A stretch of 64,000 nt of DNA from an uncultured Candidatus Saccharibacteria bacterium (GTDB lineage Bacteria > Patescibacteriota > Minisyncoccia > Minisyncoccales > GWA2-38-27). Below are positions 3,486-57,742 of the stretch, piece after piece. The first letter of the stretch is position 1. Each line of letters begins with the position of its first letter. The notes under the pieces were generated by a model that worked only from the letters and a program-made list of their open reading frames with translations, ran no database searches and was not told the DNA's origin. The stretch is taken from assembly GCA_964394985.1 (NCBI GenBank), contig CAYMZK010000004.1:12746-76745 (forward strand), written 5' to 3'. The position numbers and the translations under genes were made by a program.

Positions 3486-3741
3486 ATGTTTTGACTGCAA
3501 TAAAAAGATTGAGATCAATGGTCAAACAATCAATAATGGCTATCTTCTTTGCTATAAAGATGGCGATGAAGAAATTAAAACATATAAGTGCAAAGAATGC
3601 TATGACAAAAATCCAGCTTTAAGTAATTTCAGGAACTGTGAAGTGTATTCGAGAGTGGTTGGGTATATAAGGCCGGTTAGCCAATGGAATATTGGTAAAA
3701 AAAGAGAATACGGTGATCGTAAAGAATTCACTAATAATTAA
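3460..3741 (+). CDS. stand-alone NrdD C-terminal-like glycyl-radical/zinc-ribbon domain protein
   Basis: CFDC...CKEC zinc-ribbon cysteines, then SRVVGYIRPVSQWNIGKKREYGDRKEF. This closely resembles the class III RNR C-terminus (E. coli NrdD ...RRVCGYLG...FNAGKQEEVKRRVKH). Confidence 0.65.
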   Translation: MENVKNASRCFDCNKKIEINGQTINNGYLLCYKDGDEEIKTYKCKECYDKNPALSNFRNCEVYSRVVGYIRPVSQWNIGKKREYGDRKEFTNN

Positions 3742-3766
3742 TCATTAATAAGTTAAAATAAAACAT

Positions 3767-4048
3767 ATGTTATCACAGCTACCAATTGATTTAAGTAAAA
3801 TAGATAAAAACAATATTAATAAAGAGATTTTAAGAGCAGGAATGATCGCTGAGCTTGACGCTGTTAGTTTTTATGAGCAAATGGCAGCAATGACCGACGA
3901 TGCAAACATTAAAAGAGTGCTTTTAGATATTGCTAAAGAAGAAAAAACTCACATTGGGGAGTTTGAAACAATGCTTTTGAAGATAGATCAAGAGCAGGTT
4001 TCAGAAAACGAAGAAGCTAAAAAAGAAATAGAAGAACTAACTTCTTAA
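3767..4048 (+). CDS. ferritin-like (rubrerythrin/EncFtn-type) di-iron carboxylate domain protein
   Basis: [10 protein letters not shown] ... [10 protein letters not shown] gives an E...ExxH motif pair. Short, all-helical, about 93 aa. Confidence 0.6.
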
Positions 4049-4053
4049 GGATT

Positions 4054-4431
4054 ATGGTAGAACAAAAACAAATATATAAATGCAAAGTTTGCGGAAATAT
4101 TGTTGAAGTTTTACATGTTGGTGGTGGAGAGTTAGTTTGTTGTGGCCAACCAATGGAACTTCAAAACGAAAAAAACCAAGATGAAGGACAAGAAAAACAC
4201 GTTCCAGTAATTGAAAAAACCGATGAAGGTGTTTTAATTAAAGTTGGCTCTAATCCTCACCCAATGGAAGAAAGTCATTACATTGAATGGATTGAAGCTG
4301 TTATTGATGGCAAATATTGTCGTAAGTTTTTAACTCCTTCAGATAGACCAGAAGCATTGTTTCATATTTCTGGAGATAATGTTTCAGCTAGAATTTATTG
4401 TAATATTCATAATCTTTGGAAGAGTTCTTGA
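4054..4431 (+). CDS. dfx: desulfoferrodoxin / superoxide reductase (2Fe-SOR)
   Basis: N-terminal desulforedoxin-like CKVCGN...VCCG. C-terminal [21 protein letters not shown] and YCNIHNLW iron-ligand contexts. Confidence 0.9.
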
Positions 4432-18172: not shown

Positions 18173-18318
18173 CACTTCGTGAGCTTATAATGTCTTAAAT
18201 TTTATATGTTTTGAGCTTTATTTCGAGTTCGAGGCACAGTATGTGATTTTTATCTTATTTATTTAATAAGAATAATTTCTTAATCTTAATTCTTACTTTG
18301 TTTTTTCTAAATATTCTG

Positions 18319-18628
18319 TCTAGGTTCAGATACATATGATACGCTCGCTCAGTTAATGTAATTAGGTTGCTCGGCTTGGCCGAGCAACCTAACGAGGAGC
18401 GTCTAGGTTCAGATAGATATTACACATCTGATTTTGTCCGATTGACCGGTCAATGGGACTATTTTTAGTATGAAGGTAGTATGAAGGTTGAACCTTCATA
18501 TATTGTGTTTTCATTGTTGTGCTCCACCTGGTGGAGCACAATGCTCCACCAGGTGGAGCACAATCGGGCGGAGCACTATGTTTTTCAAGGGGTTAGGTGT
18601 ATCATATCATATGGACCAGTACAAGCAC
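18319..18628 (+). repeat. modular multi-hairpin intergenic element, long copy (type B)
   Basis: Shares its ends and several modules with 57297-57470. Contains a 14-bp stem at 18362-18392, palindrome ATTGACCGGTCAAT at 18441-18454, hairpin ATGAAGGT-TGA-ACCTTCAT and tandem GTGCTCCACC/GGTGGAGCAC palindromes. Confidence 0.85.
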
Positions 18629-27541: not shown

Positions 27542-28024
27542 ATGAAAGTTCAAAGTCAGTTAAAATATTTAAGAATTGCACCAAGAAAGGTTAGATTAAT
27601 GGCCGATATGATTAGAGGGAAAAAAGTTGAGGAAGCTCAAACAGCTTTAAGCTTTACTGTTAAAAAGTCATCTGAGCCATTATTAAAACTTTTAAATACT
27701 GCTATTTCTGACGCAAAGAATAATTTTCAGTTAGACCCAAGTAATTTAATTATTTCTGAGATAAGGGTTGATGGCGGTCCAATATTAAAAAGATGGAGAG
27801 CTAGATCAAGAGGGATGGTGGCTCCGATCCAAAAGAAAACTTCCCATGTCACTGTAATTTTAAATGAAATAGAGGCTGGAAAAAGAATTAAAAAGAAAGA
27901 AGTTAAAAAAGAAGAAAAGGTAATTAAAGAAGAAAAACCCAAAACCAAAAGACCGGTAATTGAAACACCAAAGCCAAAATCATCTAAGGGATTAAAAAAG
28001 ATATTTAGAAGAAAATCCATATAA
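27542..28024 (+). CDS. rplV: 50S ribosomal protein L22 (Lys/Glu-rich C-terminal extension)
   Basis: LRIAPRKVRLMADMIRGKKVEEA...RWRARSRGMVAPIQKKTSH. Confidence 0.95.
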   Translation: MKVQSQLKYLRIAPRKVRLMADMIRGKKVEEAQTALSFTVKKSSEPLLKLLNTAISDAKNNFQLDPSNLIISEIRVDGGPILKRWRARSRGMVAPIQKKTSHVTVILNEIEAGKRIKKKEVKKEEKVIKEEKPKTKRPVIETPKPKSSKGLKKIFRRKSI

Positions 28025-28137
28025 AATGCCAATCTACAAATGATACGCAAATACTACGAATTTTCAGGAAAATTATTAATTATTTAAATTATTCGTATCA
28101 TTTGCATAAATTCGCATTAAATTAGCATTATAACACT
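28025..28137 (+). repeat. type A ~110-nt hairpin element, copy 1 (between rplV and rpsC)
   Basis: Near-identical to 31923-32039, with 4 substitutions. 11-bp stem CAAATGATACG (28037-28047) / CGTATCATTTG (28094-28104). Phased GCATWA triplet near the 3' end. Confidence 0.9.
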
Positions 28138-28782
28138 ATGTCACATAAAGTACACCCAAAAGCTTATAGAATTAAAGGATTAAGTGATTGGCAGTCACGG
28201 GGTTTTTATAATAATCCAGCTATTCAACTAGAAGAAGATTATAAAATAAGAGAATATTTAACTAGAAAATTAAAGAGTCTTGGCGTTGAAAAAATAGAGA
28301 TTGAAAGATATACCAACAAAATGAATATTATTATCTTTAGCTCTAGACCAGGATTAATTATTGGAAGAGGGGGTGAAGGAGTCGAAAAACTTAAACAAGA
28401 ACTAGAGAATAAGATTATTAGACCAACAAAAAGGAAGTTTGAATTAAGGTTAGAAATTAGAGAAATTAAAGATCCGTGGACTTCTGCTAGTTTAAGTGCT
28501 CAGTCTATTGCTCAGCAAATTGAAAAAAGAATGCCTTATCGAAGAGTGTTAAAGCAAGCCTTAAGTAAAATAATGACCCACAAAGAAATTAAAGGAGCTA
28601 GAATCCAAGTTTCTGGAAGATTAAATGGAGTAGAGATCGCTAGAAGAGAGTGGGTTGGAAAAGGTCAGCTTCCCCGTCAAACAATTAGAGCGGATATTGA
28701 TTATTACCAGGTCAACGCAGTTTGTTCTTATGGAGTGATTGGAGTAAAAGTTTGGATATATAAAGGTGAAAAATTTGAATAA
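28138..28782 (+). CDS. rpsC: 30S ribosomal protein S3
   Basis: MSHKVHPKAYRI...GRGGEGVEKLK (KH domain)...GRLNGVEIAR. Confidence 0.96.
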   Translation: MSHKVHPKAYRIKGLSDWQSRGFYNNPAIQLEEDYKIREYLTRKLKSLGVEKIEIERYTNKMNIIIFSSRPGLIIGRGGEGVEKLKQELENKIIRPTKRKFELRLEIREIKDPWTSASLSAQSIAQQIEKRMPYRRVLKQALSKIMTHKEIKGARIQVSGRLNGVEIARREWVGKGQLPRQTIRADIDYYQVNAVCSYGVIGVKVWIYKGEKFE

Positions 28783-31922: not shown

Positions 31923-32039
31923 AAAAAATGCCAATCTACAAATGATACGCAAATACTACGAATTTTCAGGAAAATTATTAATTATTTAAATTATTCGCAT
32001 CATTTGCATAAATTCGCATTACATTTGCATTATAACAAT
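31923..32039 (+). repeat. type A ~110-nt hairpin element, copy 2 (between rplF and rplR)
   Basis: Near-identical to 28025-28137, in the same orientation and the same position relative to the downstream ATG. Confidence 0.9.
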
Positions 32040-32360
32040 ATGTTAGAGAAAAAAGTTAAAAAAAATAGAAGACATAGAAGGGTTAGAGCTAAAATTAAAG
32101 GAACAGCTGAGATTCCAAGGCTTTGTATTTTTAGATCTAATAGGTATATTTATGCTCAAGCTATAAACGACGATAATGGTCAAACTTTAATGAGTGCTAA
32201 AGGAGAATTAACTAAGGCTAAAGATGTTGGTCAAATTATCGCCAAAAAGGCTTTAGAGAAAAACATTAAGAAAATAGTCTTTGATCGAGCTGGATATAAA
32301 TATCATGGTCGAGTTAAAGATTTGGCTGAAGGAGCTCGTGAAGCTGGATTAAATTTTTAA
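32040..32360 (+). CDS. rplR: 50S ribosomal protein L18
   Basis: [31 protein letters not shown]...[27 protein letters not shown] at 32040 is preferred; the track start lies in the repeat. Confidence 0.95.
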
Positions 32361-42948: not shown

Positions 42949-43698
42949 ATGATTCCTTTACCAAAAAAACCAAAAATTGTTAAAACAAAGGATAACTGGG
43001 CTCAATTTGAAATAGAGGGGCTTTATCCTGGTTATGGTGTTACTCTTGGAAATTCTTTAAGAAGAGTTTTGCTTTCTTCTCTAGAGGGGGCCGCTGTAAC
43101 TCAAGTTAAAATCAAAGGAGCTCAACATGAATTTTCAACAATTTCCGGGGTTTTAGAAGATGTAATTACTATTATTATGAACTTAAAACAATTAAGGTTT
43201 AAAGTTTATTCAGAAGAACCTCAAAAGGCTACTTTGAAAATAAAAGGAGAAAAAAAGGTAAAAGGTAAAGATTTAAAGTTACCAACTCAATTAGAATTAA
43301 TGAACAAAGAGGCTCATATTGCTACTCTAACTAGCTCTAAGTCTGACTTCGAAATGGAAATTCAAATAAAAAAAGGGATTGGCTATGAGCCAGTGGAAAG
43401 AAGAAAAAAAGACAAGAAGCTAGAGATTGGAGTTATTCCGATAGACGCTATTTATACTCCAGTTAAAAGAGTAAGTTATAATGTAGAGAATATGAGAGTT
43501 GGAGAAAGAACAGATTTTGATCGCTTGAATTTAGAAATTGAAACAGATAGCATTATTTCTCCAGAAGAGGCTCTAGAGCAATCAGCAGATATTTTAGTCA
43601 AGCACTTTTCTTTATTGACTAAAGAAGAAGAAAAAGAACCCGCTAAGACTAAAAGTTCAGGAGAAACAAAGAAGAAAGAAGAGAAAAAGAAGAAATAA
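42949..43698 (+). CDS. rpoA: DNA-directed RNA polymerase alpha subunit, N-terminal domain only (249 aa, no alpha-CTD)
   Basis: GYGVTLGNSLRRVLLSSLEGAAVT...IPIDAIYTPVKRVSYNVE...TDFDRL. Ends in a Lys/Glu tail (KEEEKEPAKTKSSGETKKKEEKKKK) directly before rplQ. Confidence 0.9.
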   Translation: MIPLPKKPKIVKTKDNWAQFEIEGLYPGYGVTLGNSLRRVLLSSLEGAAVTQVKIKGAQHEFSTISGVLEDVITIIMNLKQLRFKVYSEEPQKATLKIKGEKKVKGKDLKLPTQLELMNKEAHIATLTSSKSDFEMEIQIKKGIGYEPVERRKKDKKLEIGVIPIDAIYTPVKRVSYNVENMRVGERTDFDRLNLEIETDSIISPEEALEQSADILVKHFSLLTKEEEKEPAKTKSSGETKKKEEKKKK

Positions 43699-43700
43699 TT

Positions 43701-44048
43701 ATGAGAAAATTAAAGCAAGGTAGAAAATTTGGTAGAGAAAAAGATCAAAGGAAAGCTTTAAAGAAATCTTTAGCTAGATCCTTGTTTTTGTATGGCAAAA
43801 TAACAACTACTGAAGCCAAAGCCAAAGAGCTTTCTAGTTTTGCCGAAAAGATGATTACTAAAGCTAAAAATAATACTTTGGCTTCCAGAAGGGCTTTAAC
43901 TACTTATTTCTCAAAAGATTTAACTAAAAAATTAATTGAAGAAATTGCTCCTAAATACCAAGAAAGAAAGGGAGGCTATACTCGAATTATTAAAAAGGGT
44001 CCAAGGAGTTCCGATGGAGCTAAAATAGCTATAATTGAATTAGTTTAA
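43701..44048 (+). CDS. rplQ: 50S ribosomal protein L17
   Basis: KLKQGRKFGREKDQRKALKKSLARSL...GGYTRIIK. Confidence 0.95.
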   Translation: MRKLKQGRKFGREKDQRKALKKSLARSLFLYGKITTTEAKAKELSSFAEKMITKAKNNTLASRRALTTYFSKDLTKKLIEEIAPKYQERKGGYTRIIKKGPRSSDGAKIAIIELV

Positions 44049-44052
44049 AGTT

Positions 44053-44400
44053 ATGGAAAGAAAAACACATACAATTGATGCTGCAAATAAGGTCTTGGGA
44101 AGATTGGCTGTTGAGATTGCTGGTCTATTAAGAGGAAAGAGTAAAGTGGACTTTAGACCTAATAAAGACGATGGAGATGTTGTTATTGTTAAAAATGCTG
44201 ACAAGATTATTATTAGTGGTAAAAAGTTTGACAACAAAGTTTATTACCATCACTCCGGCTATTTGGGAGGGTTGAAAGAAACTCCTTACAAGAAAGTTTT
44301 TAAAAATGATCCTGGAGAAGTTATCAGAAGAGCAGTTTATGGAATGATGCCTAAAAATAAATTAAGAGATATACAAATTAAACGTTTAAAGTTTGAATAA
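44053..44400 (+). CDS. rplM: 50S ribosomal protein L13 (short)
   Basis: IDAANKVLGRLAVEIAGLLRGK...YYHHSGYLGGLK...MMPKNKL. Confidence 0.95.
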   Translation: MERKTHTIDAANKVLGRLAVEIAGLLRGKSKVDFRPNKDDGDVVIVKNADKIIISGKKFDNKVYYHHSGYLGGLKETPYKKVFKNDPGEVIRRAVYGMMPKNKLRDIQIKRLKFE

Positions 44401-44840
44401 TGGAAGAAACAACTACAACAACAAAAGAAATTACCTTTAGCCTTCCAAAAGATAAATATGTTGAAGCTATTGGTAGGAGAAAAACCAGCACTGCTAGGGT
44501 TCGTCTTTTTGGCTCTAAAGACAAAGGAATAATTGTAAATGATAAAGATTATAAAGATTATTTTCAAAGTCCAGAACTTCAAAGTATAATTACTGACGCT
44601 CAAGAAACAATGAAGGTTTTAGGGAAGTTTGCTATTTCAGTTAAAGTAAAAGGAGGAGGAATTAATGCTCAAGCAGAAGCAGTAAGACATGGAATTGCCA
44701 GGGCATTAGTAGAAATTAATCCGGACTCTAGAAAAAAATTAAGAAGAATTGGTTATTTAACTAGAGATCCAAGAATGAGAGAAAGAAAGAAATTTGGGCT
44801 TAAAAGAGCTAGAAGAGCACCTCAATGGTCTAAGAGATAA
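44400..44840 (+). CDS. rpsI: 30S ribosomal protein S9
   Basis: GRRKTSTARVRL...KGGGINAQAEAVRHGIARAL...GYLTRDPRMRERKKFGLKRARRAPQWSKR. Confidence 0.97.
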   Translation: MEETTTTTKEITFSLPKDKYVEAIGRRKTSTARVRLFGSKDKGIIVNDKDYKDYFQSPELQSIITDAQETMKVLGKFAISVKVKGGGINAQAEAVRHGIARALVEINPDSRKKLRRIGYLTRDPRMRERKKFGLKRARRAPQWSKR

Positions 44841-44847
44841 AAAAAGA

Positions 44848-44877
44848 ACCCTCCGATGTTTTATCGGAGGGTTTTTG
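44848..44877 (+). terminator. rho-independent terminator ending the alpha/L13-S9 operon
   Basis: ACCCTCCGAT-GTTTT-ATCGGAGGGT (10-bp stem) followed by a T-run. Confidence 0.85.
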
Positions 44878-44886
44878 GTTGCTTAA

Positions 44887-45090
44887 TTAATCGCAGGGCA
44901 TCGGAATTTCAACGATTCGTTTGTACCAGTGAGAGAAAAACCCCTCCTGGTCTGCTATTCTAGAGGCAATAAAGCGATTAATTACTTCTTCATTTGCGGA
45001 CGCTCTTGTTTCTAACAAGAGATTGTTGTCCGCAAGAATCTCGGCGACCTTCCGATCGTTTTCTGCCTTTACGGCAACATATAATTTCAT
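44887..45090 (-). CDS. hypothetical 67-aa protein (visibly higher GC than its surroundings)
   Basis: Consensus promoter on the minus strand (TTGACA-17-TATAAT, plus-strand coordinates 45132-45160). GGAG lies 9 nt before the ATG. No family recognised. Confidence 0.6.
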   Translation of the reverse strand: MKLYVAVKAENDRKVAEILADNNLLLETRASANEEVINRFIASRIADQEGFFSHWYKRIVEIPMPCD

Positions 45091-45131
45091 AAGACAATCT
45101 CCAAAAAAAGAACAAGTTTTTGGTTTTCTTT

Positions 45132-45160
45132 ATTATACTTGATTATTATCTTTATGTCAA
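45132..45160 (-). promoter_or_regulatory. consensus sigma70 promoter for the 67-aa minus-strand gene
   Basis: The minus strand reads GGGGTTGACA-taaagataataatcaag-TATAAT. Confidence 0.7.
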
Positions 45161-45187
45161 CCCCACCTTAAAACAGAATTAAATGCA

Positions 45188-45207
45188 CCGATTGACCGGT
45201 CAATCGG
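45188..45207. promoter_or_regulatory. perfect 20-nt palindrome CCGATTGACCGGTCAATCGG between divergent promoters; candidate operator
   Basis: Read directly. The core ATTGACCGGTCAAT recurs at 18441-18454. The plus-strand promoter TTGACT (45209-45214)-17-TAAAAT (45232-45237) follows. Confidence 0.55.
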
Positions 45208-45244
45208 TTTGACTGTTTTGGGGGGATGAATTAAAATAAAAGAT

Positions 45245-45934
45245 ATGTTAAAGGAAGTTATTGATAAATATTATTTAGATAGTAGAAAAACTAGAGAACA
45301 AACTCATTTCTATATCAGTCAAGCTGGGAAGTGTCCTCGTTCTATTTTTTTTAAATTCAAGGGGGTCCCCGAAAAAGAATTAGAGCCTCATATTTTAAGA
45401 TTGTTTGAACATGGTGATCATATGCATCAATTAATAATGAGTGCCTTGCTAAGTGCTCGTGATATTCATGTAGTCGCTTCTGAAGTTAAAATTCCTCCTC
45501 AAGAATTAATTTCTGGAAGAGCTGATGCGGTTTTAAGCGACGGTGATCAATTATATGTTTTAGATATTAAAAGTATGAATAGTATGGTGTTTAGGTCTTT
45601 AAAGGAACCTAAGCCAGAAAATGTTCAACAAATACAACTTTACCTCTATTATTTTAAAATTCCAAAAGGAATATTGCTTTATGTGAATAAAGATAATTTA
45701 CAATTAAAGGAGTTTGTTTTTGATTATGATGCCCAACAAGCCAGGTGTTTAATTGATGAGATGAACCTCTTAAAAGAACAAATAGATACTAATATTATTC
45801 CTAAAAGGTTAGAAGATTATCCTAATAATTGGCAGTGTCGTTATTGTCAATATCGATCGGTTTGTGATATGGCCTCTCCTTTAGAAATGAATTGGGGTGA
45901 TTTTAAATCTCAAATTAATTCATTGGAAGAATAA
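45245..45934 (+). CDS. PD-(D/E)XK nuclease, Cas4-like with 4-Cys signature (second copy in window)
   Basis: GKCPRS (N-terminal Cys), GRADAV...VLDIKS, QQIQLYLYY and CRYCQYRSVC. Confidence 0.7.
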   Translation: MLKEVIDKYYLDSRKTREQTHFYISQAGKCPRSIFFKFKGVPEKELEPHILRLFEHGDHMHQLIMSALLSARDIHVVASEVKIPPQELISGRADAVLSDGDQLYVLDIKSMNSMVFRSLKEPKPENVQQIQLYLYYFKIPKGILLYVNKDNLQLKEFVFDYDAQQARCLIDEMNLLKEQIDTNIIPKRLEDYPNNWQCRYCQYRSVCDMASPLEMNWGDFKSQINSLEE

Positions 45935-47292
45935 AGAACTCCTTCAGAGAGAAGATAGAGCTTTCCATTAGTAAAGAGTATTTCTTGATGAGGGGATTCA
46001 GTTAAAGTAACAATGTTTAATTTATCTCTGTTGTCTAATTCAGAAACCTTTATTTTATCTCCAAGATCAAAGATAAGGTAGTGGTTATTGTACCAGAAAA
46101 CTTTATTAATTTTTTCAGAAAATCTAGTTAAAAATAATATTCCTCCTTTTTCTTTTTGTGGTTGTTCATATTGTTTTTCTAAGTAAATAACCTTTATTTC
46201 ATTATTGGTATAGTAAGTTAGTTTTTTTTGATCTGGAGATACTCGATATCCTTTAATTGAATCAGAAAGCTTTTTAAATGATTTGGTTATTTCATCTAAA
46301 AAATAAAGACTATCCTTTTCCATTAAAAAGAAATTAGAATTAAAGACAATTAATTGATATTTAATTTCCTCTTTAATTGGAAAACTGATTATATTACTCT
46401 CTTTAAATTCGTCTCCATTAGATTCTAAAATATATCCTTCTTGATTAAGACAATAAATAGAGCTTTTAATAGAGCAGGTGATAACTTCTTTTAATAATGG
46501 AGCCAATATTTCTTTTTCTTTGATTTCTACTTCGTTTAGAGTTTTAAAGGTTTTACTTTTTTCGGTTACTGATTGAATAATATATATTTTATTATTATCT
46601 CTTGGATGAAAGATTATTTCTTCCGGAGAGCCGATAAAATCTAGACGGTTGATAATTGTTGGGCTTTGACTAATATCTAAAAGAAAATACTGGACTTTCT
46701 CTTTTAGTCCTAGCTCCAAAAGAACTTTTTCTTCATTAGGAGATATTTTTAAATCATAAAAAACAATATTGCTTTTAGAAAAGTCTTCTTTGTCAATAAT
46801 GTGACTTTTTAAATTATTTTTAGTGTCATAAAGTTTTAAACTCCAATCTTTTTCTCCTTCTTTGACAATAACAATATTATTGCTTTGAGAAACAAAAAAA
46901 TCTTCTACATTTTCTAAAAGTTCGTCAAAATTAATTTCGGCAGGGATTAAGGTTATATTGCTAGCCTCGGTTGCTTCCCCTTTTTTAATTTCAAGATTTT
47001 TAGACCAATTATGATAGTTCTCTTTTTGGATTTCTATTTTATAGTTTCCAGGAATAAGATTATCTATCAAAGAAGACCCAAAGAAAATATCTGTACGATC
47101 TTTGAATTCGTTGTTGACATAGATTGCTAAACCCTTGGGTTGAGCTTTAAAATAAAAAAGACCGGTTTGGACAAATTTTAGTTCTTGCCAATCAAAGCGC
47201 CAGCCAAGAGAATAAAAGACTACTAACGGAGCAATGATTAAAAAAGAAACAAGTAAAATTCCAAATATTATATTACTAACTTTCTTGTTCAT
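45910..47292 (-). CDS. membrane-anchored PEGA-domain / beta-propeller-like protein
   Basis: N-terminal TM. PEGA-like segment GLAIYVNNEFKDRTD...GNYKIEIQKENYHNW. Long repetitive beta-rich C-terminus. Confidence 0.6.
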   Translation of the reverse strand: MNKKVSNIIFGILLVSFLIIAPLVVFYSLGWRFDWQELKFVQTGLFYFKAQPKGLAIYVNNEFKDRTDIFFGSSLIDNLIPGNYKIEIQKENYHNWSKNLEIKKGEATEASNITLIPAEINFDELLENVEDFFVSQSNNIVIVKEGEKDWSLKLYDTKNNLKSHIIDKEDFSKSNIVFYDLKISPNEEKVLLELGLKEKVQYFLLDISQSPTIINRLDFIGSPEEIIFHPRDNNKIYIIQSVTEKSKTFKTLNEVEIKEKEILAPLLKEVITCSIKSSIYCLNQEGYILESNGDEFKESNIISFPIKEEIKYQLIVFNSNFFLMEKDSLYFLDEITKSFKKLSDSIKGYRVSPDQKKLTYYTNNEIKVIYLEKQYEQPQKEKGGILFLTRFSEKINKVFWYNNHYLIFDLGDKIKVSELDNRDKLNIVTLTESPHQEILFTNGKLYLLSEGVLYSSNELI

Positions 47293-47372
47293 ATTAACCT
47301 TATTTTATCACTTGTTCTTGTTGAAATCAAGAACTTGATTTTATCTGAATATTATTTTAGAATAAGTACATG

Positions 47373-47510
47373 CCCCGTAGAGAAATTTCAATACATTCGC
47401 TGTAAGCGAATAAAAGAATACGGGGAATAATAAAGTATAATTAATAAATAGAAAAACAAACATAAGAATTTCAAGAAAGATGAGCAAACTAATTGAAATT
47501 CTTCTACGGG
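47373..47510 (+). mobile_element. CCCCGYAGA-TIR MITE-like element, full-length copy 1 (upstream of murA)
   Basis: Differs from 52208-52346 by 2 substitutions and 1 terminal nt. TIRs CCCCGTAGAGAAATTTCAAT / ATTGAAATTCTTCTACGGG. Flanked by ACATG (47368-47372) and ACATG (47511-47515). Confidence 0.8.
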
Positions 47511-47512
47511 AC

Positions 47513-48790
47513 ATGGAAGAAAAATTTATCATCAAAGGAGGAATTCCTTTAAAGGGAGAAGTAGGAGTAAGAGGAGCTAAAAATGCCGCCTTTCCAATTT
47601 TGGCCGCTTCTTTACTAACCAAAGAAACTTGCACTATAGATAATTTACCTTTAATAGAAGATGTCTTAAAGATGATCAGGATTTTAGAAAATATGGGTGC
47701 TGAGATTTCTTGGGTTGGCAAAAGAAAAATAGAAATAAATTGTTCTAAGATAAAGCCTTCTAAAACACCTTATGATTTAGTAAAATGTTTTCGAGGCTCT
47801 GTTTTGTTGTTGGGGGGATTGTTGGGAAGATTTAATAATGTTAGAATTCCTAAGCCAGGAGGTTGTGTTATTGGTTCTCGTCCAATTGATACTCATCTAG
47901 ATGCTTTTGATCAGTTAGGGATAAAGATTCACAAAACAGGCCAGTTTTACAATTTTAAAAAGAATAAAGATAATAATTCTAAAGAAGTTGTTTTAAAAGA
48001 AATTAGCGTTACGGCCACTGAAAACGTTTTACTCTATGCCACTAGTAACTCTAAACAAAAAACAACTCTTAAAATAGCCGATCAAGACTATCAAGTTCAG
48101 GATTTAATTAGGGTGTTAGAGAAAATGGGAGCTAGTATTAAGAATACCGGGATTAGGGAATACGAAATAACTGGTAAAAACAACTTAAAGGGTTTTAGTC
48201 ATAGTATTGTTAATGACCCTATTGAGGCCGGAACTTTCATTGTTGCGGCTTTAGCTACTAATGGAGAAGTTTTGGTTAAAAATGCCGAGTTGCAATATTT
48301 AGACTTGTTTCTAAAAAGATTAAAAGATTTTGGCGCAAAGTATAAAGTGATAGACGCAAAGACAATAAAAGTTTTACCTTCTAAAAAAGATTTAAAAATA
48401 GACAAAATTCAAAGCTTGCCTTATCCAGGAATTCACTCAGATCTTCAGCCGGAATTAGGGGTATTAGCTACTCAAACTAAAGGACCGACAATGATTCATG
48501 ATCCGCTTTTTGAAGGAAGATTAAGATATTTAAATGAGTTAAACAAAATGGGAGCTGATATCATTTTTTGTGATCCTCATAGAGCGATTGTTTATGGTCC
48601 TACTAAACTTCAGGGAGCTAATATCCCAAGTTTAGACTTAAGAGCAGGAGCAGCAGTGATTATTGCCGGTTTGATTGCTAAAGGTACGACTAATATAAAT
48701 AATATTTATCAAATTGATAGGGGTTATGAAAAAATAGAAGAACGTCTTAGTGATTTGGGGGCTGATGTTAAAAGGAGAATTAAAAAGTAA
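47513..48790 (+). CDS. murA: UDP-N-acetylglucosamine 1-carboxyvinyltransferase
   Basis: MEEKFIIKGG..LKGEVGVRGAKNAAFPILAASLL aligns to the MurA N-terminus (MDKFRVQG...ISGAKNAALPIL). The track start at 47480 lies inside the repeat. Confidence 0.93.
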   Translation: MEEKFIIKGGIPLKGEVGVRGAKNAAFPILAASLLTKETCTIDNLPLIEDVLKMIRILENMGAEISWVGKRKIEINCSKIKPSKTPYDLVKCFRGSVLLLGGLLGRFNNVRIPKPGGCVIGSRPIDTHLDAFDQLGIKIHKTGQFYNFKKNKDNNSKEVVLKEISVTATENVLLYATSNSKQKTTLKIADQDYQVQDLIRVLEKMGASIKNTGIREYEITGKNNLKGFSHSIVNDPIEAGTFIVAALATNGEVLVKNAELQYLDLFLKRLKDFGAKYKVIDAKTIKVLPSKKDLKIDKIQSLPYPGIHSDLQPELGVLATQTKGPTMIHDPLFEGRLRYLNELNKMGADIIFCDPHRAIVYGPTKLQGANIPSLDLRAGAAVIIAGLIAKGTTNINNIYQIDRGYEKIEERLSDLGADVKRRIKK

Positions 48791-48792
48791 TT

Positions 48793-49803
48793 ATGTTAAA
48801 GAAGAAAATAGGTATTGATCTGGGAACTTGTAACTCCATCGTTTTTACTCCTCAAAAGGGAGTGGTTTTAAGCGATCCTTCGGTTGTAGCAGTAAGTTTA
48901 GATGACAACAGAATTTTAGCAGTTGGTAAAGAAGCCAAGGAAATGACTGGTAGAACACCGGACACCATTAGAATTTATCGCCCCTTAAAAGACGGCGTTA
49001 TTGCTGATTATCGAGTAACTGAAGCAATGATTAGGTATTTTGTTAAAAGCGCCGGATCTAAATTTCGTTTTTTAAAGCCAGAGTTATTAGTAGGAGTCCC
49101 AGCCGGAATTACTTCTACTGAAAAAAGAGCAGTGATTGAAGCGGGAATGGCTGCTGGCGCCAAAGGAGTTTATGTTGCCAAAGAGCCGGTTTTAGCGGCT
49201 ATTGGAGCTGGTATTCCTATTAATTCTTGCTCTGGTCATATGATTGTAGATATCGGCGGGGGAACTGCTGAAGTGGCCGTTATTTCTTTGGGTGGAATAG
49301 TTACAGCTAAATCTTTAAGAGTGGCTGGAGACAAAATGGATAGAGCTATTTCAGAATACATTAAAAAGAAGTATAATTTAGTTGTTGGAGAGCAAACGGC
49401 GGAAGAAGTTAAAATTAAAATCGGGACTGCTGTTCCGGAAAAAACTCCAAGAGAAATTGAGATTAGAGGAAGAGATATGATTTCTGGCTTGCCTCAAAAC
49501 ATTAAGGTTAATTCTAATGAGGTTTGTGAGGCGATATCAGAAAGACTTTCAGATATCGTTCAAACCGTTAAAGAGGTTTTGAGAGACACGCCACCAGAGT
49601 TGTCGGCTGATATTATGGACAAGGGAATGATTATCTCTGGAGGCGGAGCTTTAGTTAGAAATATTGACGAACTAATTGCTGAATCAACTGGCGTCCCCTG
49701 CTTTATAGCCGAAGATCCCTTGCTTTGTGTTGCCAAGGGAACCGGAGCGGTATTGGACAACCTTGAAGCTTACAAAAAGAGCATAATGTCAAAAAGAAAA
49801 TAA
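48793..49803 (+). CDS. mreB: rod-shape protein MreB (paralog 1)
   Basis: IGIDLGTCNS...DGVIADY...VDIGGGTAEVAVISLGG...GGGALV. Confidence 0.93.
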   Translation: MLKKKIGIDLGTCNSIVFTPQKGVVLSDPSVVAVSLDDNRILAVGKEAKEMTGRTPDTIRIYRPLKDGVIADYRVTEAMIRYFVKSAGSKFRFLKPELLVGVPAGITSTEKRAVIEAGMAAGAKGVYVAKEPVLAAIGAGIPINSCSGHMIVDIGGGTAEVAVISLGGIVTAKSLRVAGDKMDRAISEYIKKKYNLVVGEQTAEEVKIKIGTAVPEKTPREIEIRGRDMISGLPQNIKVNSNEVCEAISERLSDIVQTVKEVLRDTPPELSADIMDKGMIISGGGALVRNIDELIAESTGVPCFIAEDPLLCVAKGTGAVLDNLEAYKKSIMSKRK

Positions 49804-51139: not shown

Positions 51140-52207
51140 ATGACAATTGTTATTGCAATAATATCTCTAATCTTTTTAATAATTTTTCATGAATTAGGCC
51201 ATTTTCTTTTTGCTAAAAAGTTTGGCGTTAGAGTAGATGAGTTTGGGATTGGCTATCCGCCTAGGGTTTGGGGTAAAAAGATTGGAGAAACTCTTTATTC
51301 TATCAACCTTCTTCCTTTAGGGGGGTTTGTTAAGATTTATGGTCATGAGGAAAGAATTGAAGAATCAGATAGTTTTACCACTAAGCCTTTTTGGCAGAAA
51401 TCTATAATCATTTTAGCGGGAGTGGCTGTTTTTTGGGTAATTGCCGCTATTTTATTAAGTGTAGTCGTCTATATCGGTGCTCCCTCAGCTATTAGTGATA
51501 ATGAAGTAACTGGATTTCAAGATCCTAAGGTTCAAATAATTAGTATTGCTGACAGCTCTCCAGCTTCAGGGTCTAATTTAAAAGTGGGAGATATCATTAA
51601 ATCAATTAATGATCAAGAAATAGATAAAGTTTATCAGGTTCAAAATTTAGTTTCTGAAAATAAAGGAGAAGAGATTATTTTAACTGTTCAAAGAGGACAA
51701 AAGTTAGAAGATATTAAAATAACTCCTCGCTTAGATTATCCTCAAGAAGAGGGCTCTATGGGGGTGGGTCTATTAAGAACCGGGCTGAAAAAAACAGTTT
51801 GGTATAAGGCGCCAGTTAAAGGAGTAGAGGCAACCGTTAATTTAACCAAAGCAGTTGTTGGTGGTTGGATAATTACTATAAAAGGATTAGTTCAGAACGG
51901 TGAACTTCCAGCTGGAGTAGAGGTGAAGGGTCCTATTGGAATATTTGAGCTTTTTAATAACTTTGGCGGATTGGGTGTTAGTTATTTTTTGCAATTTGTA
52001 GCCGTAATTGCTATTTCTTTGGCTTTAATTAATATTTTACCAATTCCTGCTCTAGATGGTGGTTGGTTTTTGTTCTTGGTTATTGAAAAAATAATAGGAA
52101 GACCATTGAATCAAAAATGGGTCCAAAATATTAGTGTCTTTTTCTTCTTTCTGTTAATTTTATTGTTAATTTGGGTAACTGTAAAAGATGTAATCGGGCT
52201 ATTATGA
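51140..52207 (+). CDS. rseP: RIP metalloprotease RseP (M50 with PDZ)
   Basis: HELGHF, central PDZ (GDIIKSINDQEI) and NILPIPALDGG. The TGA stop lies within the left TATGA repeat. Confidence 0.9.
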   Translation: MTIVIAIISLIFLIIFHELGHFLFAKKFGVRVDEFGIGYPPRVWGKKIGETLYSINLLPLGGFVKIYGHEERIEESDSFTTKPFWQKSIIILAGVAVFWVIAAILLSVVVYIGAPSAISDNEVTGFQDPKVQIISIADSSPASGSNLKVGDIIKSINDQEIDKVYQVQNLVSENKGEEIILTVQRGQKLEDIKITPRLDYPQEEGSMGVGLLRTGLKKTVWYKAPVKGVEATVNLTKAVVGGWIITIKGLVQNGELPAGVEVKGPIGIFELFNNFGGLGVSYFLQFVAVIAISLALINILPIPALDGGWFLFLVIEKIIGRPLNQKWVQNISVFFFFLLILLLIWVTVKDVIGLL

Positions 52208-52346
52208 CCCCGTAGAGAAATTTCAATACATTCGCTGAAAGCGAATAAAAGAATACGGGGAATAATAAAGTATAATTAATAAATAGAAAAACAAATATAA
52301 GAATTTCAAGAAAGATGAGCAAACTAATTGAAATTCTTCTACGGGG
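52208..52346 (+). mobile_element. CCCCGYAGA-TIR MITE-like element, full-length copy 2 (between rseP and proS)
   Basis: TIRs CCCCGTAGAGAAATTTCAAT / ATTGAAATTCTTCTACGGGG. Flanked by TATGA (52203-52207) and TATGA (52347-52351). Confidence 0.85.
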
Positions 52347-52347
52347 T

Positions 52348-53538
52348 ATGAGACAATCAAATCTTTTTTACAAAAGCTTAAAAGAAACACCTAAGGATGC
52401 TGAGGCCATTTCTCACATCCTTTTGTTAAGAGCCGGCTTTATTGATCAAACAGCAGCCGGAATTTTTAGTTTTTTACCTTTAGGATTAAAGGTTTTAAAA
52501 AACATTGAAGAGATTATTAGAGAAGAAATGGAAGCTGTTGGTGGTCAAGAAATTTTAATGCCGGCCTTAACTCCAAAGGAAAATTGGGATAAAACTGGAA
52601 GATGGGACGCTTTTGATGTTTTGTTCAAGTTAAAAGGAGGAAACAAAAAAGAGTATGCTTTGGGTCCAACTCACGAAGAAATAATTTCTCCCTTGGTAAA
52701 AAAACATATTTTATCGTATAAAGACTTGCCTTTTTCTTTGTTTCAAATTCAAACTAAATTTAGAAATGAATTAAGAGCCAAATCCGGGCTTTTAAGAACA
52801 AGAGAGTTTTTAATGAAAGATCTTTATTCTTTTCATATTGACCAGAAAGATCTAGATAACTATTACGAGAAAGTTGCCAAAGTTTACTTTGGGATTTTTA
52901 AAAGATGCGGATTGAAGGTGTATAAGACTCTAGCTTCTGGTGGTAGTTTTTCTAAATATTCTCATGAATATCAGGTAATAACTGGAGCTGGTGAAGATGT
53001 AATTTATCTTTGTGATAAATGCGGAATAGCTATAAACAAAGAAATAAAAGAGAAGAAGTGTCCTGAATGTGGCGGGACTAAATTTAAAGAAACTAAAGGA
53101 ATAGAGGTGGGAAACATTTTCAAATTAAAAGATAAATATTCTCTTCCTTTCCAACTAACCTTTAAAGACAAAGATGGTAAAGAAAAACCAGTTTTAATGG
53201 GTTGTTATGGAATTGGTCTAAGTCGAGTATTAGCCGCTATAGTTGAAACCAATAATGATGAGAATGGAATTATTTGGCCAAAAGAAGTAGCTCCTTTTGA
53301 TATTCATTTAATTTCTTTGAATAACATTAAGGCCGATAAAATTTATTCTAAATTAATTAAAGAAGGAAAAAGAGTGTTATACGATGATAGAAAAGAAGTT
53401 AGCGCTGGTCAAAAATTAGCCGAAGCTGATTTAATTGGAATTCCGGAAAGATGGGTGGTGAGCAAGAAGACTTTAGCTAAAAAATCAGTTGAAATTAAAA
53501 AAAGAAATCAAAAGAAAGTAAAATTGACAAAGATCTAG
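52348..53538 (+). CDS. proS: prolyl-tRNA synthetase, bacterial-type N-terminus, INS editing domain absent (396 aa)
   Basis: MRQSNLFYKSLKETPKDAE aligns to ProRS MRTSQYLLSTLKETPADAE. FRNELRAKSGLLRTREFLMKDLYSF. A CDKC...CPEC knuckle sits where INS normally lies. The track start at 52315 lies in the repeat. Confidence 0.9.
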   Translation: MRQSNLFYKSLKETPKDAEAISHILLLRAGFIDQTAAGIFSFLPLGLKVLKNIEEIIREEMEAVGGQEILMPALTPKENWDKTGRWDAFDVLFKLKGGNKKEYALGPTHEEIISPLVKKHILSYKDLPFSLFQIQTKFRNELRAKSGLLRTREFLMKDLYSFHIDQKDLDNYYEKVAKVYFGIFKRCGLKVYKTLASGGSFSKYSHEYQVITGAGEDVIYLCDKCGIAINKEIKEKKCPECGGTKFKETKGIEVGNIFKLKDKYSLPFQLTFKDKDGKEKPVLMGCYGIGLSRVLAAIVETNNDENGIIWPKEVAPFDIHLISLNNIKADKIYSKLIKEGKRVLYDDRKEVSAGQKLAEADLIGIPERWVVSKKTLAKKSVEIKKRNQKKVKLTKI

Positions 53539-57287: not shown

Positions 57288-57296
57288 AGAACTCTA

Positions 57297-57470
57297 TCTA
57301 GGTTCAGATACATATGATACGCTCAGTTAATTTATTACGTTTGGTAACTGGGTTGCTCGGCTTGGCCGAGCAACCCTGGGACTATTTTTAGTATGAAGGT
57401 TGAACCTTCATATATTGTGCTTCAAGGGTCTTTTGGTGTATCATATCATATGGACCACCAGTACAAGAAC
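57297..57470 (+). repeat. modular multi-hairpin intergenic element, short copy (type B)
   Basis: Collinear with 18319-18628 minus three inserted modules. Closing helix CATATGATAC (57311-57320) / GTATCATAT (57438-57446). Confidence 0.85.
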
Positions 57471-57504: not shown

Positions 57505-57575
57505 TGCGGGGTGGAGAAGTAGTATCTTGTGAGGCCCATAACCTCAAGACGCGGGTGCAATTCCCGCCCCCGCAA
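57505..57575 (+). tRNA. tRNA-Met(CAT), initiator-like, with atypical D- and T-loops; no encoded CCA
   Basis: Cloverleaf folded by hand. Acceptor TGCGGGG/CCCCGCA, D-stem GAGA/TCTT (A11:T24), anticodon loop CCCATAA, T-arm GCGGG-TGCAATT-CCCGC. Resembles E. coli tRNA-fMet ends (CGCGGGGTGGAG...CCCCCGCAA). Confidence 0.7.
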
Positions 57576-57584
57576 CAAGCATGA

Positions 57585-57656
57585 GCCGGTGTAGCTCAGT
57601 GGTAGAGCAGCGGGATCATAATCCGCGTGTCGGGGGTTCAATTCCCTCCATCGGCA
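57585..57656 (+). tRNA. tRNA with CAT anticodon (elongator Met or Ile2/lysidine type); no encoded CCA
   Basis: GCCGGTG-TA-GCTC-AGTGGTA-GAGC-A-GCGGG-ATCATAA-TCCGC-GTGTC-GGGGG-TTCAATT-CCCTC-CATCGGC-A. Confidence 0.85.
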
Positions 57657-57665
57657 CTTTATTTT

Positions 57666-57742
57666 GGGGGCGTAGATCAATTGGTTAGATCATTTCCCTG
57701 TCACGGAAAAGGTTGCCGGTTCGAGTCCGGTCGCTCCCGCCA
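57666..57742 (+). tRNA. tRNA-Asp(GTC) with encoded CCA
   Basis: GGGGGCG-TA-GATC-AATTGGTTA-GATC-A-TTTCC-CTGTCAC-GGAAA-AGGTT-GCCGG-TTCGAGT-CCGGT-CGCTCCC-G-CCA. Confidence 0.9.

Follow-up and report, generated by a model that had tools for sequence, protein, structure and literature searches.

In the 64-kb stretch of DNA analysed here (referred to as the window), the start codons of murA and proS are each directly preceded by the same short repeat, which raises the question of what this repeat is: a regulatory device kept before the two genes or a piece of mobile DNA that landed there. The preliminary description of this DNA had taken it for a discrete element bounded by terminal inverted repeats (TIRs) and flanking direct repeats, present before murA as a second, near-identical full-length copy, and had suggested that it may serve as a portable 5'-untranslated region, promoter or structure cassette. 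The first part is borne out by the sequence: copy A (positions 47373–47511, forward strand like all features given below) and copy B (52208–52346) are two copies of one 139-nt element. Compared base by base, they differ at three positions (T/A at 47403, C/T at 47461 and A/G at 47511, the last base of the element), which corresponds to 97.8% identity over the element; over 143 nt, a repeat finder reported an ungapped identity of 97%. The window contains the 29-nt left end two times, whereas 0.00 occurrences are expected from shuffled sequences; neither a family profile search nor a 9-mer search revealed a third copy or remnant in the 64 kb. As argued in the following, we regard the copies before murA and proS as insertions of a miniature inverted-repeat transposable element (MITE) at start codons, mobilised in trans by a GIY-YIG nuclease cassette of the same family, and assign this reading a probability of about 0.72.

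The TIRs, refined here to 20 nt, match at 17–18 of 20 positions between the two arms of the window copies. In copy A, the left arm (GA type, CCCCGTAGAGAAATTTCAAT) covers 47373–47392 and the right arm (AG type, ATTGAAATTCTTCTACGGGA) 47492–47511, the last base being A rather than G; the arms of copy B lie at 52208–52227 and 52327–52346. Copy A is preceded by ACATG (47368–47372), a displaced copy of the start-codon context of murA, and followed by CATG (47512–47515; ACATG if read from 47511 to 47515), which provides the true murA start at 47513–47515 (murA, 47513–48790), as had already been noticed. The flanks can also be read as CATG/CATG, the left one at 47369–47372, if the odd last base A is counted as part of the element. 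Copy B is flanked by TATGA on both sides, the left repeat (52203–52207) holding the TGA stop codon of rseP (52205–52207) and the right one (52347–52351) the start codon of proS (52348–52350; proS, 52348–53538). Because the right flank duplication contains an ATG, murA and proS keep their own start codons. The element itself is short and non-coding, its sole open reading frame (ORF) being an 11-codon in-frame run-in to the host gene that is absent from relatives.

Both sites were found empty in related genomes. The loci L082 and L085 are syntenic with the window, sharing the order of about 15 genes and coding for MurA proteins that are 82% and 80% identical to that of the window, respectively. 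Their sequences upstream of murA are uninterrupted (...aaagtatacttATGgaagaa in L082 and ...atataatatATGgaagag in L085), and the same applies to their rseP-proS junctions, which read ...ttttaa gatTATGaaacaatc and ...ttctaa aaTATGtatcaa. The converse case is represented by the start of rpsL, where the window is empty and reads ctaattttttaattATGcc, whereas L028 is filled and reads ctaattttttaattATA followed by a 143-nt element and TATGcc. Judged from these sequence comparisons, the window repeats are insertions, and two recent ones, of a mobile element. Another locus, L034, is syntenic with window positions 43396–48896 (71–80% identity at the nucleotide level), and its murA start is likewise occupied, by a copy of 143 nt. 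This copy is flanked by TATG instead of the CATG of the window, and its interior is about 80% identical to those of the window copies. Given the 98% likeness of the two window copies and the different flank repeats in the two lineages, the latter were probably hit independently at the murA site.

The element belongs to a wider family. We scanned one genome per species as well as the JGI metagenomes with the TIR pattern CCCCGTAGARRAATTTCAA, which is blind to flanks and content, and obtained 13 loci from genomes and 54 from metagenomes. Pairing of the arms yielded 47 elements of 67–326 nt, 34 of which are non-redundant. Almost all family hosts are assemblies labelled Patescibacteria or Candidate Phyla Radiation (CPR), and a comparison of MurA homologues puts the window close to Nealsonbacteria-like Patescibacteria. 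Hits in non-CPR taxa (L003, L005, L007, L009 and L013) consisted of single arms only and were treated as chance. Viral contigs gave just two chance hits with the TIR pattern, located in GC-rich DNA, and a protein scan of these contigs for the nuclease described below found only 36–39% relatives. Across 39 copies from the window and from L001–L086, the arms match at positions 1–20 and not beyond. The two arms always differ at position 10 (39 of 39) and nearly always at position 11 (36 of 39), in each case by a GA/AG swap, and other changes in the TIRs occur in both arms together. On a folded strand, this swap puts a tandem G.T(U)/A.C into the middle of the 20-bp stem.

The long versions of the family (295–345 nt) contain a single ORF of 86–92 aa for a GIY-YIG nuclease of the Slx1/UPF0213 type. 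In each of three TIR-bounded units (L001, 317 nt; L018, 306 nt; L020, 326 nt), a single ORF of 87–91 aa matches the Pfam family GIY-YIG (PF01541) with E-values of 1e-12 to 1e-16 and 48–59 bits (cut-off 22.6). Protein searches returned more than 1159 homologues of 86–100 aa, which are called GIY-YIG nuclease family proteins where they are named and come from Patescibacteria lineages. Five further loci (L068, L077, L080, L081 and L086) were chosen by protein similarity alone, and all five show the same arrangement of TATG(A), TIR, 6–45 nt, nuclease ORF, 0–8 nt, TIR and TATG. The final TATG of the cassettes starts the next host gene, e.g., gvpG, hrcA or fpg, and the N-terminus MPELPEVE of the fpg product fixes the true start after the cassette. 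The nuclease gene and the downstream gene invariably point in the same direction, and 17–27 nt separate the nuclease stop codon from the host ATG. In L001 and L086, the left ATG opens an 8-codon ORF, MPRREI(S/L)N, whose stop codon is located 2 nt before the nuclease ATG. Eight independent cassettes share the TIRs together with one GIY-YIG ORF, and the fetched loci (566 kb) contain no TIR pair with any other type of gene inside; candidates for larger TIR-bounded units with another enzyme proved to be pairs of separate small elements.

The catalytic residues of the nuclease are invariant in 18 sequences (Y3, Y5, Y16, G18, R26, H30 and E50, i.e., Tyr, Tyr-x-Gly, Arg, His and Glu). A profile search against the PDB gave the UPF0213 structures 1zg2 (6.6e-10) and 1ywl (3.1e-9) ahead of SLX1 (1.5e-4) and I-TevI (8e-4), the partner ORF thus being closest to the stand-alone Slx1-like proteins and not to the UvrC/I-TevI branch. 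We also observed that in the L001 unit (3739–4055) the DNA of the YIG motif, AGAAATCTCTACGTGGGCTAC (codons NLYVGY), resembles the element end GAAATTTCTCTACGGGG, which is possibly a coincidence.

Start codons are the prevailing insertion sites. In about 20 of the 34 non-redundant copies, the AG-type arm is followed within 0–1 nt by the ATG of an ORF, mostly with a 4-nt TATG duplication, and at 23 independent sites an AG-type end directly precedes the (T/C)ATG of an ORF. The genes hit at their start codons include murA, proS, rpmG, rpsL, tsaD, fpg (MPELPEVE) and hrcA; in L033 and L063a, a GTG start is made from the last G of the element and TG. Eight short copies split TTGACA-like hexamers after TTGA in either orientation, the hexamer being restored, and three copies abut tRNA genes. 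In L012 (512–654), a 73-nt copy sits 9 nt into tRNA-Pro(GGG), the 5' end of which is rebuilt by the terminal CGGGG and a duplicated CGTG; this tRNA was called across the junction by ARAGORN, and the target ACGGGGCGTG is similar to the end of the element itself. Among the 106 non-coding TATG sites of the window, 57 are start codons and 49 lie elsewhere. With such a split, about 21 TATG-type insertions that are all located at starts and in one orientation are not explained by a TATG preference combined with loss of insertions within genes. As a separate observation, the MurA homologues P0144 and P0221 from outside the window carry in-frame insertions of about 20 aa at or just after the N-terminal MEEKF motif, which may represent further small elements that entered close to this start codon without breaking the frame.

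Because the cassettes share the TIRs with the window copies, the latter are MITE-type derivatives, which were probably mobilised in trans by the cassette nuclease. Several points weigh against this reading. The nuclease gene is absent from the 64-kb window according to tblastn and to a profile HMM search of all six-frame ORFs (best E-value 0.89), and from 2.2 kb beyond it (a 7.9-kb contig reached through the L11 gene); the two 139-nt copies are therefore non-autonomous, and the supply of the nuclease in trans is an assumption. An identical L11 gene is present in reads of SRR7048227. No activity, excision product or within-population polymorphism was observed. To our knowledge, GIY-YIG enzymes are hydrolytic and have no strand-transfer activity, and the 87-aa nuclease does not contain a separate DNA-binding domain. 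Furthermore, the gene starts are ORF-based calls, the flank duplications range from 3 to 6 nt and are devoid of an ATG in a third of the copies, and the enrichment at start codons could partly represent survivorship in genomes that are 92% coding. An exact-match TIR pattern also samples only those copies with conserved TIRs, and related GIY-YIG ORFs without recognisable TIRs occur next to tRNA genes. The latter ORFs are located in L008 (41–522, also L059 9028–9401), L011 (2655–2897) and L012 (7715–7948) and show 44–55% identity; the ORF of L008/L059 has tRNA-Leu on one side and, on the other, a duplicated 3' fragment of this tRNA, which is followed by a short copy of 76 nt.

The alternative that survives best, although we consider it unlikely, is a cis-regulatory cassette, either a two-fold RNA switch before the AUG or a promoter, which would hence be kept at murA and proS. 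The structural features behind this proposal were all found where the preliminary description had placed them. Hairpin H1 (ATTCGCT-GTA-AGCGAAT) is located at 47395–47411 in copy A and at 52230–52246 in copy B. An internal TACGGGG (47419–47425), which is invariant in an eight-member subfamily, is complementary to CCCCGTA, the 7 nt with which the element begins. A TATAAT hexamer is present at 47436–47441, and the internal AAGAATTTCAA (47464–47474) is complementary to the inner part of the right TIR, allowing a local alternative hairpin AAGAATTTCAA/TTGAAATTCTT, with an ATG at 47480–47482. RNA folding predicted the long TIR stem as the best structure for both window copies (z-scores of −5.7 and −4.4), and because the flank repeats extend this stem, the host AUG would come to lie at its base. 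The two alternative folds via the 3' TIR were reproduced on paper, with −31.0 kcal/mol calculated for the global TIR stem and −26.0 kcal/mol for two local modules, so that folding the halves apart would cost 5 kcal/mol. Such a small difference would suit a switch, as would two changes in the internal arm pairing with the right TIR (A to G and C to T) which would still allow G.U pairing on the sense strand, a (T/C)ATAAT-like hexamer in six of the eight subfamily members and the occupation of this murA site by a diverged copy in L034 as well.

The regulatory proposal also gains from the covariation among further copies, which was indeed found for the stem of H1: across 11 related copies, 90% of the cells are paired, compared to 68% in shuffles (0 of 500 attained the 90%) and 40–55% in slid controls, and double changes occur in all five pairs. 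We conclude that H1 is under structural constraint, as had been claimed, whereas the assignment of this constraint to the RNA level is not supported. The interiors of 31 short copies, folded with their TIRs removed, are more stable than shuffled sequences on both strands (mean z-scores of −2.2 for sense and −2.06 for antisense) and show no asymmetry, with sense folding better in 17 and antisense in 12 cases. Because both strands fold equally well, the RNA and DNA levels cannot be separated. The T/A change at 47403 falls into the H1 loop and keeps a GNRA tetraloop in the two window copies (GTAA vs. GAAA), as described before, but the loop is not conserved in relatives, where it reads CGA, TG, CAT, AG, AAA, TGAAA or TTAAG. 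Likewise, the TATAAT box is present mid-element but only partly conserved in relatives; it lacks a −35 partner, and a promoter and terminator scan called no promoter inside the element. At the Rfam gathering threshold, the whole window yielded four tRNAs only, and no match was obtained even at E ≤ 1 in 47250–47600. A described structured RNA family was therefore discarded as a candidate, there being neither an Rfam covariance-model match nor strand-specific structure.

The distribution of the element also argues against a regulatory role. It is missing from both genes in the close syntenic relatives L082 and L085, and it occurs before unrelated genes, at tRNA ends and at −35-like boxes, with neither the loop type nor the internal ATG being conserved. 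The L034 copy, with its different flank (TATG vs. CATG) and its lower likeness (about 80% vs. 98%), points to independent hits instead of a retained regulator. The idea of a portable 5'-untranslated region, promoter or structure cassette is thus unsupported, given relatives without the element at both loci and the lack of a called promoter. The element behaves as a selfish insertion tolerated at start codons, with no sign of a regulatory cassette. The structural constraint would be explained at least as well by a structure-specific nuclease of the Slx1 type that acts on folded DNA as by an RNA function, and the hairpins and the TIR swap are more likely recognition features for such an enzyme than RNA devices.

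Somewhat less probable still is a second alternative, namely that the element is a MITE of a conventional insertion sequence coding for a transposase and sharing the TIRs, the GIY-YIG gene being cargo or a nested insertion. This would agree with the well-studied bacterial TIR elements with target duplications, which use DDE-type or other dedicated transposases, with the fact that GIY-YIG nucleases are not known to join DNA, and with the missing nuclease gene in the window. However, all eight independent TIR-bounded coding units contain the GIY-YIG ORF only, which takes up all but a few bases between the TIRs, always points in the direction of the downstream host gene and is under purifying selection, and no TIR pair in the 566 kb encloses any other gene. 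Finally, it is very improbable that the cassette is a free-standing homing endonuclease gene spread by break repair with the short copies as its decayed remnants, for although GIY-YIG is a classic domain of homing endonucleases (I-TevI matched with an E-value of 8e-4) and the same gene starts are occupied in different lineages (murA; tsaD in L051 and L053), the target genes (more than 20, unrelated to each other) have just (T)ATG in common and not one cognate site, TIRs and flank duplications are foreign to homing, the interiors of the short copies are hairpin modules and not ORF debris, and two near-identical short copies at different loci cannot be cassettes decayed in place.

The insertions have left their mark on the annotation of both host genes. 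In both copies, the reading frame of the internal ATG agrees with that of the host ATG, a simple consequence of the two junctions sharing one geometry. The public MurA sequence (P0121) starts at the internal ATG at 47480 and contains 436 aa instead of 425, the additional 11 codons reading MSKLIEILLRD. ORF callers likewise start ProS at 52315, which would add MSKLIEILLRG and result in 407 aa instead of 396. Look-ups of the exact MurA protein, with either start, and of P0121 returned no record. The internal ATG is unique to this genome, and the extension is absent from all 119 other MurA homologues listed, which start at MEEKF-like termini. Therefore, 47513 is the real start of murA, a functional N-terminal extension of MurA was rejected, and the 11 codons are a by-product of gene calling.

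Shine-Dalgarno motifs are depleted upstream of the window genes, preceding 1–3% of them vs. 8–12% in the background (71–83 called genes), a T is found at position −1 in 49 of 71 starts, 70 of 71 genes lie on one strand, the median intergenic gap is 5 nt, and 92% of the window is coding. Because Shine-Dalgarno motifs are nearly absent, parting a gene from its upstream bases removes none, and their displacement was rejected as the main cost of insertion in an organism that barely uses them. A promoter-like site of murA (TTGATT-17-TAGAAT, 47335–47363), identified by consensus match only, lies upstream of the insertion and ends 9 nt before the left ATG copy. In several genes of the window, a TATAAT is located 6–9 nt ahead of the ATG, an arrangement that suggests leaderless or near-leaderless mRNAs.

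The window contains further repeats. A second, unrelated intergenic repeat of 118 nt is present at 28023–28140 and 31925–32042 (96.6% identical) in the rplV-rpsC and rplF-rplR gaps, each copy reaching right up to the ATG of the next gene. An inverted repeat, CAAATGATACG...CGTATCATTTG, lies inside the 118-nt sequence, the 3' end of which is promoter-like (TTGCAT-N17/18-TATAAC), and no copy was found in any fetched locus. A repeat of about 60 nt occurs at 18315–18374, 18401–18425 and 57293–57352, upstream of tRNA genes (18766; 57505–57739). A perfect 20-nt palindrome, CCGATTGACCGGTCAATCGG, is found at 18438–18464 and 45181–45207 and could be an operator.

In the MITE insertions before murA and proS, each copy entered a (C/T)ATG start context, duplicating 4–5 bp; the left ATG copy now runs into the element, and the right one still starts the gene. 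For the mechanism behind this, we propose the following. A nuclease supplied from elsewhere in the genome would mobilise the 139-nt copies. The position at start codons and the fixed orientation may be due to a promoter-less cassette being expressed from the initiation signals of the host gene, by way of a short leader ORF starting at the left ATG, the nuclease ORF, a stop codon 17–27 nt before the host ATG and re-initiation. With few Shine-Dalgarno motifs and genes only a few bases apart, such termination-reinitiation is plausible for both the nuclease and the host gene. The element would be co-transcribed with murA and proS and fold into a rod of TIR stem and internal hairpins, and its effect on the expression of these genes is probably neutral to mildly harmful. 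Two types of chemistry are conceivable: a staggered cut with joining and fill-in, in which the joining would be new for this enzyme class, or cleavage of TATG sites by the nuclease, followed by microhomology-templated copying from a TATG-flanked donor. For the latter, the nuclease alone would suffice, and this route would explain the uniform flank repeats.

Beyond the window feature, the family might represent an undescribed class of prokaryotic transposable elements, for which we would tentatively give slightly less than even odds. Its sole protein would be an Slx1-like GIY-YIG nuclease of about 87 aa, encoded in an autonomous unit of about 300 bp that is smaller than any known insertion sequence; it would recognise folded 20-nt TIR stems with a fixed central mismatch, insert specifically at start codons, be expressed by translational coupling and regenerate the host ATG. 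If the link to the nuclease is true, it would provide a new enzymatic basis for bacterial DNA transposition and the smallest self-contained mobile element known in bacteria, and a large unexplained family of GIY-YIG proteins of about 90 aa, abundant in Patescibacteria, would gain a function. A selfish element would then persist in genomes of about 92% coding density by landing where a 4-bp duplication restores the gene. In practical terms, the element leads to mis-annotated N-termini, as seen here for MurA and ProS, probably breaks assemblies, and offers a natural start-codon-targeting insertion system.

A full-text literature search revealed nothing on TIR-bounded GIY-YIG cassettes, MITEs in CPR bacteria or start-codon-targeted insertion. 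GIY-YIG homing endonucleases such as I-TevI and the Seg proteins share the catalytic domain and are also selfish genes between or before conserved genes. Unlike the cassette, they have long DNA-binding extensions, act on one cognate site via flanking homology, and are devoid of TIRs, target duplications and short non-coding derivatives. The best sequence match is to the stand-alone Slx1-like proteins (UPF0213 members BH0048 and EF2693; YhbQ type), which, like the cassette ORF, are minimal GIY-YIG domains of about 90–100 aa without accessory domains. In the literature (PMC1564403), the bacterial stand-alone proteins are presented as minimal enzymes with vertical inheritance and a probable role in repair, and not as part of TIR-bounded multi-site insertions. 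The same bacterial group and domain recur in the GIY-YIG ORFs reported from non-intron insertions of CPR rRNA genes (Tsurumaki et al. 2024, PMC11270868). According to the authors, these insertions are similar to neither of the intron groups and "seem outside the context of homing"; the paper makes no mention of TIRs, duplications, short derivatives or start codons of protein genes.

IS200/IS605 elements and their palindrome-associated derivatives are similar in being very small, in having ends that depend on folded DNA hairpins and in using short fixed target motifs. They have no TIRs, make no duplication, use a Y1 HUH transposase and span at least about 700 bp, whereas the cassettes reach only about 300 bp and have true 20-nt TIRs and flank duplications. 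The repetitive extragenic palindromic (REP) and bacterial interspersed mosaic elements (BIME) are likewise small, dispersed palindromic intergenic repeats, and in the REPtrons formed with RAYT genes, a small nuclease-type gene is flanked by inverted repeat copies and thought to mobilise the repeats in trans. RAYTs are HUH/Y1 enzymes related to the TnpA of IS200/IS605, and REPs make no target duplication, in contrast to the GIY-YIG nuclease, 20-nt TIR ends and duplications seen here. Similar in outward form are also the Correia elements of Neisseria (CREE/NEMIS), non-coding multi-copy TIR elements of about 100–155 bp located beside genes and co-transcribed with them, which likewise fold into long TIR hairpins and are able to change how strongly adjacent genes are expressed. 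Their TIRs are 26 nt long, the duplication is TA, and we know of no coding partner for them. The element described here differs by unrelated 20-nt TIRs, an ATG-containing duplication of 4–5 nt, its location exactly at start codons, its Patescibacteria host and a coding partner sharing the TIRs. It thus resembles the Correia and REP/RAYT systems in form and fails the defining features of each, and the feature of the window itself is to be filed as a MITE, in a new variant.

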